Of a stretch of 64,000 nucleotides of DNA, positions 7,643-58,726 are shown piece by piece; within the stretch, counting starts at the first letter, position 1; each line of letters starts with the position of its first letter. The notes beneath the pieces are model-generated. The model was not told where the DNA came from and did not search any database. It was given only the letters and a program-made list of their open reading frames with translations. This DNA is from an uncultured Candidatus Saccharibacteria bacterium (GTDB lineage Bacteria; Patescibacteriota; Minisyncoccia; Phycocordibacterales; GWA1-40-21). The position numbers and the translations under genes are program-made. The stretch covers positions 82,232-146,231 of the forward strand of contig CAZEMP010000002.1 of assembly GCA_964513515.1 (NCBI GenBank), written 5' to 3'.

Positions 7643-8007
7643 TCGGGTAAATATAACATAACTGAGCGATAGTAAGTAATTTTATCTAAATTTATAGGTT
7701 TTTTTGCTATTTTAGTCTGGCAGAATTGCTTTTTTGTCTTTACTGTCAACTTTTAGTGAACAGTTTGGTTGTGGATAAGTAGGTTGACTACTACCCACCC
7801 AGGAGTATCATTATATACTGTGTTGATTCTGATACGGACGCGCAGAAATATGGCTATAAATAAGCATATTTTTCAGAAGATACCGAAAACACATTAAAAA
7901 AGCGGCTTATTATAAGGAAAAATACTATAAATGGCTCAAAGAGTGGTTTAGACACCAAGGGTCAGTCAATAAAATCTATATTTTTCACCATTTATTCAAG
8001 ATGGTTT

Positions 8008-9012
8008 TTGGCTTTTTTGTTTGTTTTTAACTTTATTTCTATCTTTCCGGTCACAGCAAATGCTGGCTTTTTCTCATTTTTGTTCTCAGTTAGCTCATCT
8101 ATAGCGACAGAAGTACAAAATACTGATTCAAACTCACAAAATGTACAACTTCTTACAAGTACTCCAAACTTTGATTCAAATGCAGCTGTTGGAGGAGGAG
8201 ATATTAGCACTGCAGATTACGGCGAGGCATTAGTTGCAGAAAGCGGTCCTTCAGGTACGCAAGCGGATATAAGCGACACTGTTAATACAGGTCAGATTAG
8301 TAAATATATAGTAAGAAAAGGAGATAGTTTAGGATCTATTGCAAAAATGTATGGTGTTACTACAAATACTATCATTTGGGCCAACAACATGACTTCAAAT
8401 AGCGTAAAAGAAGGACAGGCGCTTATTATTTTGCCAGTTTCAGGTACTTTGCATACTGTAGTTAAAGGAGATACTTTAAGTTCTATCGCAAAGAAATATA
8501 AAGCAGATGTAGGTGAGATTTCTCAATTTAACAATTTAGAATCCGGAGTTTCGCTTGCAATTGGAGATACTATAATAATTCCAGACGGTGAAGGAACAAT
8601 AAGAGTTAGTGGTACTACCAAGTCATCTTTCACAAGTTCATTTAAAGGTGGAAGCGGTCCAGAATATAGCGGATATTATATTAGACCGATAGCTGGTGGT
8701 ATAAAGACACAAGGTTTACACGGATATAACGGTGTGGATATAGGTGTACGTACCGGAACAACATTATATGCAGCTGCAGCCGGTCAGGTCATGATTGCTA
8801 AAGGCGCTGGATGGAACGGAGGTTATGGAAAATACATCGTCATTTCACACTACAACGGAACACAAACAGTTTATGGACACTTGAGCCAAGTTGTCGTAAA
8901 TGAAGGAGATCTTGTTTATCAAGGTCAGATAATTGGAGCAACAGGAAATACTGGACGTTCAACAGGACCACACTTACACTTTGAGATACGTGGTGCTAAG
9001 AATCCATTTTAG
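8008..9012 (+). CDS. Secreted LysM-domain M23 family metallopeptidase
   Basis: Signal peptide, two LysM repeats (YIVRKGDSLGSIAKMYGV.., HTVVKGDTLSSIAKKY..), C-terminal M23 signature (HxH ...GPHLHFEI). Confidence 0.8.
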   Translation: MAFLFVFNFISIFPVTANAGFFSFLFSVSSSIATEVQNTDSNSQNVQLLTSTPNFDSNAAVGGGDISTADYGEALVAESGPSGTQADISDTVNTGQISKYIVRKGDSLGSIAKMYGVTTNTIIWANNMTSNSVKEGQALIILPVSGTLHTVVKGDTLSSIAKKYKADVGEISQFNNLESGVSLAIGDTIIIPDGEGTIRVSGTTKSSFTSSFKGGSGPEYSGYYIRPIAGGIKTQGLHGYNGVDIGVRTGTTLYAAAAGQVMIAKGAGWNGGYGKYIVISHYNGTQTVYGHLSQVVVNEGDLVYQGQIIGATGNTGRSTGPHLHFEIRGAKNPF

Positions 9013-9121
9013 TTAGCTTTTAGTTGTTAGCTGCTAACTTTTAGGAAATACAGAAAACCAAAAAGGAATTTTCGCTCTGCGAAAATTCCTTTTTGATTTT
9101 CTAACAGCTAACAGCTAATAG

Positions 9122-10681
9122 CTATTGATTACGTTTTGGTCTATATTGCAATGCTTCAAGTATATGAGAAGAATTTATTGTCTCGTCTCCGGCAAGATCA
9201 GCTATTGTTCTTCCAAGTTTTATCACCCTGTGATATGCACGAGCCGATAAATCTAATCTTTTTGCAGAAGTATTTAATATTTCCCTTGCTTCTTTTTCTA
9301 GATCAACTATCTTACTAATGTCTTTTGCCTCAAGTTCGCTATTTGTTTTTATTTTTCTATTTGCTTTTGTAAACCTATTTTTTTGTATTTCTCTTGCCTT
9401 TATAACCCTATCTTTTATTTCAAGAGTTTCTTTTTTATCTGTATCCGTGCCAGAGAGTTTCTCATAATTGATTTGTGAAACTTCTACCCACATATCTATA
9501 CGGTCTATTATTGGACCAGATATTTTTCTTTGATATCGAAGTAGATCTGTTGGTTTGCAAATACATTCTTTTGTTTTTGAACCGAAATTTCCACAAGGAC
9601 AGGGATTCATTGCTGCTATTAGTATAAAATTGGCAGGAAAAGTGACAGTGCCTTTTGATCTTGAAATACTTATCTCACTTTCTTCAAGTGGTTCACGAAG
9701 TGTATCTATTACCTTTCTATCGAATTCTGGAAATTCATCAAGAAAAAGTACACCACGATGAGCCAAAGTTATTTCTCCTGGTTTGGGAATTGTTCCACCC
9801 CCAACAATAGAAACATAAGAAGCTGTGTGATGTGGTGCACGAACAGGAGATCTGGTAATAATATCTTTCTTTAATACCCCAGCCACTGAATGAATAGAGG
9901 TTATCTCTAGTATTTCATCAAAGGAAAGGGTTGGAAGAATGTGAGCAAATGCTTTTGCTAACATAGTCTTTCCTGTTCCTGGTGGTCCATACATGGCAAT
10001 ATTGTGTCCTCCAGCAGCTGCAATCTCAAGTCCCCTTTTTGCTGTCTCTTGTCCTTTTATCTCACTAAAATCTGTAATGAGTTCATCCTCTTCTATAATT
10101 ATTTTGGTTTTTGCCTGTTGCTCAATCTTTCTTGGTATATTTTTTTCTTTTGCTTGAGATTTTTTGATATTTAAATGTTCTATAATTTCTTTTAGATTAT
10201 TTGCTCCGTATATTTTTATGTCAGAAACAAGAGCGGCTTCTTTTGCATTGGCTTTTGGCAAAAATACTTCTGTAAAACCGCAATTTTTTGCTTCTGCAAC
10301 TATAGGAAGCACGCCGTTTATTTTTCTTAAATTTCCATCAAGAGAAAGTTCACCAAGGAACAATATTTTTTTAGAATCAAACTCTACATCTCCACTTGCT
10401 AGTAAATATGAAAGCGAGATGGCGACATCAAAGATTGGTCCTTCCTTTTTTATATCTGCAGGAGCTAGTGATACAACAACTTTTTGATTTAAACTTTTAG
10501 GAGAAGTAAAACCACTGTTTTTTATTGAAGCTGAAACTCTATCTTTGGATTCTTCCACTCCTTTGTCTGGTAGTCCTACTATAGTAAAAGAGTGCAGTCC
10601 TTTTGATAGGTCTATCTCCACATCTATTATTTTTGCACCTAGACCTATTGTTTGTGCACTAAAAGTTTTAGAAAAACTCAT
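9122..10681 (-). CDS. comM: Mg-chelatase-like AAA+ ATPase ComM/YifB
   Basis: N-terminal Lon-like ChlI domain and Walker A GPPGTGKTMLAKAF. Length is typical of the YifB family. Confidence 0.85.
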   Translation of the reverse strand: MSFSKTFSAQTIGLGAKIIDVEIDLSKGLHSFTIVGLPDKGVEESKDRVSASIKNSGFTSPKSLNQKVVVSLAPADIKKEGPIFDVAISLSYLLASGDVEFDSKKILFLGELSLDGNLRKINGVLPIVAEAKNCGFTEVFLPKANAKEAALVSDIKIYGANNLKEIIEHLNIKKSQAKEKNIPRKIEQQAKTKIIIEEDELITDFSEIKGQETAKRGLEIAAAGGHNIAMYGPPGTGKTMLAKAFAHILPTLSFDEILEITSIHSVAGVLKKDIITRSPVRAPHHTASYVSIVGGGTIPKPGEITLAHRGVLFLDEFPEFDRKVIDTLREPLEESEISISRSKGTVTFPANFILIAAMNPCPCGNFGSKTKECICKPTDLLRYQRKISGPIIDRIDMWVEVSQINYEKLSGTDTDKKETLEIKDRVIKAREIQKNRFTKANRKIKTNSELEAKDISKIVDLEKEAREILNTSAKRLDLSARAYHRVIKLGRTIADLAGDETINSSHILEALQYRPKRNQ

Positions 10682-10844
10682 TTATCCGAGAAAATTTTTG
10701 CCAACAAAAAATGTTTGTTTGGCTTAATCACTGTGTTCATTGTATCATACAAATCATTTTATAGACCTGGTTATGATAATCAATTTTTTAACAAACATTG
10801 GCAAAAACTTTAACGGGCAAGTTATACAGTAATCCACATAAAAC

Positions 10845-57084: not shown

Positions 57085-57831
57085 ATGCTAGCAAAATATC
57101 TAAAAGAAATTGGTTTGAGTGAAAAGGAAGCAGAGGTATATCTATCCTTACTTGAAGGAGATAGCTATTCAATATTAGCTCTATCTAAAAAAACAAAAAT
57201 TAATCGCACGACGATTTACTCCGTCATAAAGTCTCTTTTAGAAAAAGGATTAGTCAGTGAGACCACAATAAATACAAAAACAAACTATCATGCAGAGTCT
57301 CCGGATAGATTAGAAACATTTGTAAATCAACAAAAAATTCTTCTTGAAGAGAGCTCAAAGAAATTAATAGATGTCATACCTCAGTTAAAAAGCGTTCAAA
57401 GAGGTATGGGTGAAAGGCCTGTTGTTAAGTATTTCGAAGGAAAGGAAGGTATTTTAAGTGGTTCAGAGGATATTTTTAAGGATCCAGTGCCAACAGAAAA
57501 AGCTTATATGATATATTCTAAAGATCTAATTGATGAAATCTTTAAGACAAGTGAGATAACAAAAACTAAAAGCAACAGAACTAGTAAAAAAATTGAAGGA
57601 TTGTCAATATATACTTATAAAAAAGGTGATATTCCAAGTGATGAAACATCTACCAGAGTAAGAATTGACGAAAAAAAATATCCAATAAATTGTGATATTA
57701 CAATATATAAAGATAAAGTCAGGATAGCCACATTAAGTAAGAATTTGTCTGGTATATATATACAAAGTGCTGACTTGGCAGAAACACTCAAAAGCATAAT
57801 AAGATTAGTCAGCGATACTTTAAGTAAATAA
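57085..57831 (+). CDS. TrmB-family transcriptional regulator (paralog 3)
   Basis: wHTH IGLSEKEAEVYLSLLEGDSYSILALSKKTKINRTTIYSVIKSLLEKGLV. Confidence 0.65.
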   Translation: MLAKYLKEIGLSEKEAEVYLSLLEGDSYSILALSKKTKINRTTIYSVIKSLLEKGLVSETTINTKTNYHAESPDRLETFVNQQKILLEESSKKLIDVIPQLKSVQRGMGERPVVKYFEGKEGILSGSEDIFKDPVPTEKAYMIYSKDLIDEIFKTSEITKTKSNRTSKKIEGLSIYTYKKGDIPSDETSTRVRIDEKKYPINCDITIYKDKVRIATLSKNLSGIYIQSADLAETLKSIIRLVSDTLSK

Positions 57832-57842
57832 AAAAAGTAAAT

Positions 57843-57878
57843 GAAAAGCCCCTCCCGATGTTCCGGGAGGGGCTTCGT
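57843..57878 (+). terminator. Rho-independent terminator after TrmB paralog 3
   Basis: AAAAGCCCCTCCCGATGTTCCGGGAGGGGCTTCGTCTTC. Confidence 0.6.
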
Positions 57879-58726
57879 CTTCTCTGGTCGTACATCGACC
57901 ATTCTTCACAGTTCTTGGTTCTTCAGAACCCTGCAAAGAACTCTCTTTATTTCTCGAGCGAACGCCCGAAAGAACTACTAGTCGTTCATGACCCCATCCT
58001 CCTTGTTTTGTACTACTACAACTACCTTAACCGAACTAGCATAGTCTCAACCCCTTCACCCCCTTGAAGTATTCAAGGGGGGTAGTCGAGTACTATCTAG
58101 TCGTGCATAGTGGTTTTACCCCCTTTGCTAAATTTATTACGACAATTCAATGATAACAGATAAGAAATATTTGTCAATAGGTTTTGACGTTATTTGACAT
58201 TTTATGTAAATTAATGTCAAAATACGCCAATTTATAAGGCTGTTTCCGTCTTTTCACCAAAAAACAGTGTTATTTGTGAAAAACATACTAAAATTAGTGT
58301 AAAATAACTTTAAAATATGTCAAATATATGAATTAAATGTTGATGCGTATCGACATAATTAATATTATATTATCCTTATATAAAGCCATATATTATGAAT
58401 CTATAAAAGAAAGTGTTGTTATCTCTTGACAAATAAATATAATCTGTTAAGCTATACATAGAAAACAAGTTTGATGTATTTCCTTCCAAGTGCCTCTCTC
58501 TAATATTTAATAAATAAGGCAGCAGCAGGCACTTGGAAGGGAATAGATCTAATAAATCACACAAAAGGGGGTGATGAATATGACGATATACATCGTCAAC
58601 GGACAAGTCTTCACCAGCCGACAGGCTGCGATTGAAGCCCAGAGGAAGTAAAATTCCCCTGGAAATTCTTCGGGTAAAACCGGAGTTACTAAAAAATCCA
58701 TTAGTGTAAAAGCACGGGTAAATGTG

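Follow-up and report, generated by a model that had tools for sequence, protein, structure and literature searches.

A quasi-palindromic intergenic element of Patescibacteria and phage contigs as a candidate operator beside sigma-70 promoters

Copies of the element in a 64-kb window

The DNA considered here is a 64-kb stretch (hereafter the window) of contig CAZEMP010000002.1 from an uncultured Candidatus Saccharibacteria bacterium (assembly GCA_964513515.1, positions 82,232 to 146,231), and the subject is a short intergenic element that recurs in it. The window is 33% G+C and carries eight tRNA genes. The cumulative GC skew reaches its minimum at ~22-23 kb, where the genes also switch from the minus to the plus strand, and on these two signs the window would probably span a replication origin. 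Its PNPase (12490-14634, minus) is 100% identical to a protein in NCBI and has relatives that bear the names Candidatus Paceibacterota/Parcubacteria, and the window was accordingly taken as part of a Paceibacterota (CPR) chromosome.

The 15-mer ATATGGCTATAAATA occurs without mismatch at 7848-7862, 24023-24037 and 24897-24911 (all plus strand) and with two mismatches at 25279 (plus), 58377-58391, 2878 and 19685 (all minus). Seven matches with up to two mismatches compare with 0.58 expected, and none of 100 shuffles reached seven, which bears out the recurrence noticed in the original prediction. At least five of the seven, as well as four of the five exact ATATGGCTA cores, lie outside open reading frames (ORFs) of at least 80 amino acids, which make up 80% of the window (binomial p ~0.005 for avoidance of ORFs). 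Two sites depart from this intergenic placement, TGGCTATAAAT at 6616 within uvrD and a ATATGGCTA core at 32081 (minus) within an ORF. Among the copies first listed, those at 7851, 24023, 24893, 25272 and 58378 stand, with coordinates off by 3-7 nt: 7851 is where TGGC begins within copy 7848, 24893 becomes 24897, and 25272 becomes 25279. The remainder are weak or marginal. At 36118 (AACAGCTATAAATATGG) the left core, elsewhere conserved, is missing; at 45160 (TTATGGCTATATTTATC) the core is intact and the right half is lost; and 32722 and 33001 are marginal matches to the motif. The principal copies and variants are as follows.

7845..7872, plus: copy 1, AAATATGGCTATAAATAAGCATATTTTT, 23 of 24 matches to the consensus of the candidate phyla radiation (CPR)
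24020..24047, plus: copy 2, in a conserved origin-like module, upstream of yraN
24894..24921, plus: copy 3, just beyond a minus-strand terminator ('GC islet 1')
25279..25300, plus: copy 4, ATATGGCTAATAATATGACTAT, degenerate with the core intact
36118..36139, plus: marginal copy, AACAGCTATAAATATGGACTG, upstream of hammerhead operon 2
45162..45183, plus: weak copy, TTATGGCTATATTTATCAATTA, between a promoter-like TTGACG-N16-TATTAT and an aminotransferase start codon
58222..58245, plus: weak promoter-proximal variant, ATACGCCAATTTATAAGGCTGTTT, between copy 5 and a non-coding RNA (ncRNA) promoter
58368..58394, minus: copy 5, ATATGGCTTTATATAAGGATAATA, in the divergent control region between an ncRNA (minus) and a hammerhead operon (plus)

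Copy 1 falls at ~+28 to +55 from the predicted transcript start of an M23/LysM peptidase gene. The start of copy 2 is 84 bp from the DnaA box that precedes it (23939) and 86 bp from the parS-like site that follows (24109), copy 3 lies ~55-75 bp upstream of a minus-strand ncRNA promoter, and copy 4 is flanked by two divergent ncRNA promoters (25235-25208, minus; 25407-25435, plus). The remaining sites stand near three genes for TrmB-family regulators: copy 5 is 560 nt beyond the end of TrmB-3, the weak copy at 45162 is 131 nt upstream of the divergent TrmB-2 gene, and the marginal copy at 36118 is 142 nt upstream of the divergent TrmB-1 gene. The flanks of all copies are unrelated past ~28 bp, which rejects a miniature inverted-repeat transposable element, a repetitive extragenic palindrome or another dispersed repeat. 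No Rfam 15 family was found at any copy in the window and 18 CPR loci (gathering score or E<=5), and full-text literature searches returned no published description of the motif and nothing of relevance on promoters, transcription starts, or LexA and TrmB motifs in the CPR.

Architecture of the element and its spread

One genome per species, for 185,579 species, was scanned with the exact 17-mer ATATGGCTATAAATAWG. Among the 120 matches listed, at least 20 are named Patescibacteria (ten Saccharibacteria, together with Paceibacterota, Vogelbacteria, Taylorbacteria, Zambryskibacteria and others), and four more bins with the same flank behaviour give 24 CPR instances. These share additional conserved flanks, AAA upstream and G-A-T-A-T-T-T-T downstream (G in 20/24, T in 20/24), whereas the 95 non-CPR matches among those listed have random flanks and are mostly coding. 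Since the shared flanks occur only in the CPR instances, the element is real and lineage-specific. In CPR loci, one copy in 8 kb is the usual density. An 18-mer version is carried by 13 IMG/VR stretches. In phage contigs L128, L129, L130 and L139 (L numbers denote the individual loci) the motif stands just upstream of terS/terL, in L127 it lies between a Rep-like gene and a primase gene, and L139 has two copies with AAGACAC iterons around them (340-620). The matches of a looser phage scan were for the most part gene starts with no relation to the motif (MAINK..., as in GroEL), and were set aside. With 17-25 bp identical from Paceibacteria to Saccharibacteria, the element is spread across Patescibacteria, and it also occurs in phage contigs.

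The consensus is a ~28-bp quasi-palindrome, AAAATATGGCT-ATAAAT-AAGGATATTTT, of which ATATGGCTATAAATA is the core. Its 11-bp arms are identical at 8 of 11 positions as inverted repeats around the 6-bp centre, and its half-sites are ATATGGCT and, read as the reverse complement, ATATCCTT. The layout is 8-6-8 or 11-6-11, (AAA)ATATGGCT-ATAAAT-AAGGATAT(TTT), over ~22-28 bp. Of the two half-sites, the one on the left, ATATGGCT(A), hardly varies. That on the right is AAGGATAT, the true mirror AGCCATAT, or part of a self-paired CCTTAT..ATAAGG, and from these three arm combinations, seen in the M23 palindromes and in the cassette sites described below, the half-site is suggested to be ATAT[GC][GC][CT]T. 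In L121, L122, L125 and L126 two related half-sites are inverted at fixed spacing as ATATGGCT-N6-AGCCATAT. A strict palindrome search for TATGGC-N6-10-GCCATA gave only one match.

A second kind of repeat, AAAGACA/AAGGACA, often in inverted pairs, is found within 150 bp 5' of the motif in ~13 of 31 instances and rarely 3' of it (24846-24870, 25214-25240 and 23968 in the window; L061, L068, L103, L125 and L126 elsewhere). Those at 25208-25235 overlap a minus-strand promoter, those of phage L139 make up the AAGACAC iteron arrays around its two motif copies, and the repeats are probably a second type of operator. AAGACA was rejected as a -35 element, as its distance to the motif ranges from 3 to 60 nt.

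Promoters, TrmB-family regulators and the origin-proximal module

In the original prediction the motif looked like an extended -10 promoter serving plus-strand genes and GC-rich islets downstream. The position upstream of such genes is correct in part; 'GC islet 1', for one, folds as a minus-strand intrinsic terminator with a hairpin and U6 (z=-2.5, vs -1.2 for the plus strand). The assignment as promoter is not supported. The M23 gene, yraN and the nearby ncRNAs have distinct sigma-70-type promoters of their own:

7784..7811, plus: canonical promoter TTGACT-N16-TATCAT upstream of copy 1, conserved in L121
24150..24158, plus: extended -10 element TGCTATAAT, read from the sequence as yraN's own promoter element, directly before the yraN start
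25235-25208, minus: TTTACA-16-TATAAT, from the sigma-70 scan
25407-25435, plus: TTGACA-17-TATAAT, from the sigma-70 scan
58150..58177, minus: TTGACA-N16-TATCAT with TG, for a conserved ncRNA, from the sigma-70 scan
58416..58443, plus: promoter-like TTGTTA-N16-TATAAT of a hammerhead operon, divergent from copy 5 at a distance of 25 bp

The motif itself is probably not a promoter. In TGGCTATAAAT the distance from TG to TATAAA is two bases where an extended -10 has one, and -7 is occupied by A. A sigma-70 consensus scan called no motif copy and found canonical promoters beside the copies, and no -35-like hexamer is enriched at any fixed offset among 52 instances. In five close relatives the orthologues of copy 7848 are palindromes, ATATGGCT-N6-AGCCAT(AT), without TATAAAT, and lie ~28 nt downstream of the predicted start of the conserved TTGACT-N16-TATCAT promoter. 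ATATGGCTA is the sole invariant part among relatives; the supposed -10 hexamer drifts (TAATAT, TATAGA, TAACAA, TACAAA) and is absent from some orthologues (CAACAG, TTGTTG). The orientation is flipped in place between L029 and L049/L083, with the distance to the DnaA box unchanged, and also between the window copy at 24897 and L121:3733. A sigma-54 promoter (GG-N10-GC; TGGCAC-N5-TTGC) was rejected, since the motif reads GG-N10-GG with AAGG for TTGC and its palindromic form GG-N9-GC; a sigma-H reading was ruled out by spacing and sequence. The motif does mark regulatory regions beyond chance, and a further proposal, that part of it may bind a regulator, agrees with the data.

The -10 elements of yraN (TTG start; 24150-24169) and of terS in phage L139 (ATG start; 656-697) end 6-8 nt before the start codons, which suggests leaderless mRNAs. 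The M23/LysM peptidase gene has a 5' untranslated region (UTR) of ~190 nt (7820-8008, plus), conserved block by block in L121, in which no riboswitch was matched.

The three TrmB paralogs, and the ncRNA that adjoins one of them, are placed as follows.

35248-35976, minus: TrmB-1, paralog beside a motif-like site
44286-45029, minus: TrmB-2, paralog beside a motif-like site
57085..57831, plus: TrmB-3, winged helix-turn-helix (wHTH) regulator (PF01978), candidate binder
57838..58143, minus: conserved ncRNA, convergent with TrmB-3, terminator at 57876-57845

All three paralogs contain the N-terminal PF01978 wHTH (51-55 bits vs a cutoff of 25.6), with Arg41 and Tyr45 of the recognition helix invariant. 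The NCBIfam models of archaeal TrmB/TrmBL1 score 19-46 bits against cutoffs of 500-650 and match the first 100-130 residues only, so that the likeness is limited to the N-terminal wHTH and coiled-coil, without a sugar-binding domain signature. No PDB sequence match was obtained for the paralogs.

Eighty metagenome loci with TrmB-3 orthologues (47-81% identity) were fetched, 65 of them with at least 800 nt downstream. In 25 of the 65 the motif, with up to three mismatches, lies on the minus strand 300-800 nt beyond the gene and upstream of the ncRNA, and 44 of the 65 have the ncRNA signature. Matches upstream of the TrmB gene number only seven (four distinct sites). Within the conserved cassette a strong TTGACA-N17-TGCTATACT promoter stands between motif and ncRNA, the motif being 27-53 nt (short class) or ~230 nt (long class) upstream of it. 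Cassettes of the long class carry in addition, at a proximal position, a palindromic variant such as CCTTATAAATAAGG or ATGGCC..GCCAT, to which the window variant at 58222..58245 is similar. At the M23 and aminotransferase genes the motif is instead at +20 to +55 from predicted starts. The TrmB-3 geometry is repeated in L001 and L053, and in L011 the motif overlaps the start codon of a TrmB-like gene. Among the TrmB-1 orthologue loci, L221 has an exact core in the control region; L223 has a two-mismatch site 68 nt upstream of a TrmB paralog. No recA gene was found in the fetched loci, where it was sought as a sign of an SOS link.

The conserved ncRNA is probably the target gene of the motif. 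It is ~300 nt long and occurs in 30 distinct metagenome loci (e.g. L150, L177, L192). It contains one or two AAGGAGG-N5-8-AUG-NNN-GAC-UAR units (in the window, a Shine-Dalgarno sequence with AUG-NNN-GAC-UAG at 58108 and 57989). After each unit comes a long hairpin, the stem of which clearly covaries and the loop of which contains CUCAUAG/CUCAUUG and is like the anticodon loop of initiator tRNA. The ncRNA ends in a bidirectional terminator and has no match in Rfam. Also near the TrmB genes are six type-III hammerhead ribozymes, all on the plus strand (36566-36618, 58820-58885, 59672-59725, 60403-60456, 61222-61264 and 62360-62413), with perfect catalytic cores and Rfam scores of 25-44 bits, under the gathering score of 48.5. 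They stand between small GC-rich ORFs without Pfam matches, forming operons at 36.2-38.8 kb and 58.45-62.45 kb with 45-50% GC vs 33% for the genome. Their placement beside TrmB paralogs is conserved: of the 80 TrmB-3 loci, 31 contain hammerhead cores, and so does, in L220-L222, the operon that diverges from TrmB-1. At 62489-63145 (minus) a gene convergent with the end of this operon in the window (58.45-62.45 kb) encodes a 218-residue protein with sigma-70 region 4 only, in which region 2 was undetected.

Copy 2 belongs to a module near the GC-skew minimum. The DnaA boxes and parS-like sites of this part of the window and of the M23 locus are these:

7770..7778, minus: perfect DnaA box (TGTGGATAA on the plus strand), directly beside the -35 of the M23 promoter; copy 1 follows 78 bp downstream
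23939..23947, minus: perfect DnaA box of the origin-like module, followed by a second box-like GTGTATATG and by AAAGACAG
24109..24124: parS-like palindrome, TGTTTCATGTGAAATG, with further parS-like sites in yraN at 24225, 24340 and 24466
24876-24884: one-mismatch DnaA box, 21 bp upstream of copy 3
25245..25253, minus: perfect DnaA box, 34 bp upstream of copy 4

Each of the three boxes in the window that are perfect is followed by a motif copy 34-84 bp downstream, and 9 of the 10 perfect boxes in the window and four relatives have one 34-84 bp away. The copy at 24023 is orthologous to copies in Saccharibacteria L049, L083, L117 and L013 and in the relatives L121 and L124-L126. The module reads cca (minus), DnaA box, box-like GTGTATATG, AAAGACAG, motif, parS-like palindrome, yraN. 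It spans ~210 bp (within window 23900-24570), is flanked by cca and yraN, and is conserved between Paceibacteria and Saccharibacteria. The DnaA box is 84 bp from the motif in the window, L121 and L124-L126 and 84-85 bp in Saccharibacteria L049/L083 (85 in L083), and the parS-like palindrome lies at +67 to +86 from the motif. In module-bearing genomes the yraN coding sequence itself holds three to eight parS-like GTTTCAYRTGAAAC sites. No dnaA gene adjoins the module. An alignment of seven genomes leaves A-ATGGCTA and TA as the invariant motif columns. In L121, L124 and L125 a second copy on the opposite strand follows the yraN stop codon, so that the two copies face inward and bracket yraN and its parS sites. 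In 19 of the 24 CPR instances the nearest 200 bp are free of DnaA boxes. The element is therefore not purely an origin component, and a DnaA-trio or DNA-unwinding reading was rejected because there is no trinucleotide periodicity.

Between yraN and xth are three ncRNA-like genes (24610-24835, minus; 24929-25201, minus; 25443-25675, plus). All three have a terminator and a promoter of sigma-70 type, which in one case is a perfect TTGACA-N17-TATAAT, and none has an Rfam match; L121 is without the first and the third. The block from PNPase (12490-14634, minus) to uvrD (~2-22.7 kb) is inverted to the other side of the origin relative to L121 and L124-L126, in which rpsO, NYN and PNPase are contiguous. 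The inversion is symmetric about the origin, and none of its breakpoints coincides with a motif copy.

The candidate operator, rival explanations and known systems

The reading that we tentatively prefer, at somewhat less than even confidence, is that the motif is an operator beside sigma-70 promoters, bound by a probably dimeric protein, most plausibly of the TrmB family. It draws on the symmetry of the half-sites, the inversion in place with position kept, the adjacent promoters and the co-localisation with TrmB genes. TrmB-family winged-helix regulators are named as the most plausible candidates for the binder because each of the three paralogs stands beside a copy or weak copy. On this proposal, a dimeric sequence-specific DNA-binding protein conserved throughout Patescibacteria would recognise the element, which precedes sigma-70 promoters by some tens of bp or closely follows their starts, and from this promoter-adjacent position could activate, repress or loop. 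One copy would have been built into the origin-proximal module (DnaA box, 84 bp, motif, ~80 bp, parS, yraN). The phage sites head packaging and replication modules and may be counted in favour, as phages use host-factor sites.

Several observations weigh against this reading. The link between the family and the motif is one of adjacency only. The region upstream of TrmB-3 itself contains no motif and shows no sign of autoregulation, and searching the partial phage contigs for the TrmB paralogs (tblastn) gave no match. Four relatives have two to four exact-core sites, plus one-mismatch palindromic variants, per 22 kb, with no TrmB gene near them. In many sites the central ATAAAT is conserved like the arms, which is uncommon in a spacer and agrees better with a promoter or the core of a recombinase site. 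The half-sites are 14 bp apart centre to centre, which is unusual for HTH dimers, and in ~25 of 28 loci the cassette motif points the same way as the ncRNA, which means that its asymmetry may matter.

The alternatives rank, in decreasing likelihood, as an IHF-like architectural site, a non-canonical promoter and a Xer-type core site. According to the architectural explanation, which we consider unlikely though worth keeping in view, an HU/IHF-family or other nucleoid protein bends the DNA at an accessory site for replication and partition, a CPR analogue of the IHF sites in oriC, datA/DARS, P1 parS and lambda cosB. The fixed spacing to the DnaA box across the window, L121, L124-L126 and L049/L083, the nine of ten perfect boxes with a motif nearby, the adjoining parS-like sites with inward-facing copies around yraN in three relatives, and the phage copies at terS/terL, at Rep-like and primase genes and among iterons all agree with it, as does an HU/IHF-family gene at 18634-18906 in the window. 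HU genes are nearby only occasionally, however, most CPR instances (19/24) are without a DnaA box within 200 bp, and two-fold half-sites are unlike the asymmetric IHF sites, whose WATCAANNNNTTR is absent from the consensus. Moreover, in statistical terms the motif is tied most strongly to the TrmB/ncRNA cassette rather than to the origin. Less likely again is a -10-only promoter (TATAAATA) read by the housekeeping or an alternative sigma-like factor, with ATATGGC as an upstream contact and the nearby AAGACA and DnaA-box sites as operators. The motif does contain TATAAAT(A), the TAAATA centre is highly conserved in cassette sites, 11 of 24 CPR and 5 of 6 phage instances point to a co-oriented ORF within ~450 nt, late (terminase) operons of phages are headed by it, and a sigma-70 region-4-only protein is encoded at 62489-63145. 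Against this stand the features given above: the TG one base off, A at -7, the silent sigma-70 scan and lack of a -35 signal, orthologues without any -10, TATAAAT drifting while ATATGGCTA is invariant, orientation flipping in place, and canonical promoters placed between the motif and the genes that it was supposed to serve. Next to copy 24897 is a minus-strand terminator, not a plus-strand gene, and some copies face convergent genes, e.g. in L118.

Improbable, in our estimate, is a Xer-type site of 28 bp (11-6-11; AAAATATGGCT, ATAAAT, AAGGATATTTT) for the recombinase encoded 1.7 kb away, by which modules such as the ncRNA genes and yraN would be bracketed and shuffled like plasmid pdif modules and through which phages would integrate. 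Geometry and length are dif-like with a conserved central 6 bp, and the tyrosine recombinase (26972-27928, minus) scores 219.9 bits on archaeal XerA (cutoff 220), below the XerC and XerD cutoffs. Its gene is syntenic with the origin-proximal copies and with rpsO, NYN and PNPase, but conserved gene order accounts for this linkage. Inverted copies bracket yraN in three relatives, the ncRNA content between copies differs between the window and L121, and phage contigs carry the site, with no integrase gene to be seen in its neighbourhood. However, the copies are at the origin and not the terminus, at least five of them in 51 kb around the GC-skew minimum instead of one; several direct copies persist within 1.3 kb without evident deletion, the inner arm bases are asymmetric, the opposite of dif, and the large origin-flanking inversion relative to L121 is not broken at motif copies. 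The strong positional tie to promoters and the TrmB cassette would not be expected either. The least probable explanation, which we regard as very doubtful, places the function in RNA, as a 5'-UTR hairpin, a protein-binding site or a leader mini-ORF (ATG GCT ATA AAT AAG, MAINK...). Copy 7848 and its orthologues lie in a conserved 5' UTR that would be transcribed, with a possible hairpin AUGGCU(C)..(G)AGCCAU in which one change in L124 would still allow pairing as U-G, and the ATG of the motif opens ORFs in L011, L023, L129 and L131. Yet the CPR-wide consensus cannot fold as a hairpin (G-G mismatches), and many copies lie upstream of promoters or right after terminators, outside the relevant transcript. 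The mini-ORFs are variable, with 6-20 codons and no Shine-Dalgarno sequence, substitutions are not synonymous-biased, and looser patterns pick up unrelated gene starts such as that of GroEL.

To our knowledge, gene regulation, replication origins and phage-host signals are almost unknown in Patescibacteria, most of which are uncultivated. The element would offer DNA-binding assays a concrete target and a few candidate proteins, would mark the origin-proximal module in fragmented metagenome-assembled genomes, might serve to assign CPR phages to hosts, and would give an entry to the conserved cluster of TrmB genes, ncRNA and hammerhead operons. It also cautions annotators that AT-rich repeats bearing TATAAAT are not always promoters. 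A broader proposal, to which we give a low probability, makes the element a superphylum-wide host-factor site that is integral to the CPR origin, at a fixed 84 bp from the first DnaA box and with parS on its flanks, and that is reused by phages, at their packaging and replication modules, and by the TrmB/mini-ORF ncRNA/hammerhead cluster. If that were true, a single new protein-DNA system would link replication and segregation with the development of phages and with an operon processed by ribozymes.

Compared with known systems, the element shares with Xer sites (dif, archaeal XerA dif and pdif) the 28-bp 11-6-11 layout, the conserved central hexamer and a Xer-like gene nearby, and with pdif modules the inverted copies around a small module. 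It differs from them in being multicopy and origin-proximal, with asymmetric inner arms and no rearrangement junctions found. TATAAATA is the late-promoter consensus of phage T4; like extended -10 and T4 late promoters, the element has TATAAATA after TGG, has no -35 and is intergenic, but the TG spacing and the A at -7 differ, the -10-like part is not the conserved part, some orthologues are without a -10, canonical promoters coexist with it, and its orientation flips. The resemblance to IHF sites of E. coli oriC, datA/DARS, P1 parS and lambda cosB extends to DnaA boxes at fixed spacing, partition sites, phage packaging regions, positions upstream of promoters and tolerance of both orientations; unlike those sites, the element is quasi-palindromic and lacks the WATCAANNNNTTR core. 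Among archaeal TrmB/TrmBL1 operators, the Thermococcales glycolytic motif is TATCAC-N5-GTGATA. Here too, inverted half-sites surround an A/T-rich spacer beside core promoter elements, the regulator gene adjoins the target, and the candidate binders contain the TrmB wHTH (PF01978). However, the sequence is unrelated and longer (8-6-8), the halves differ, the host is bacterial, and one copy lies in an origin-like module and others in phages. The element would belong to a known class of regulator or host-factor binding sites, and is notable within it for the breadth of its conservation.

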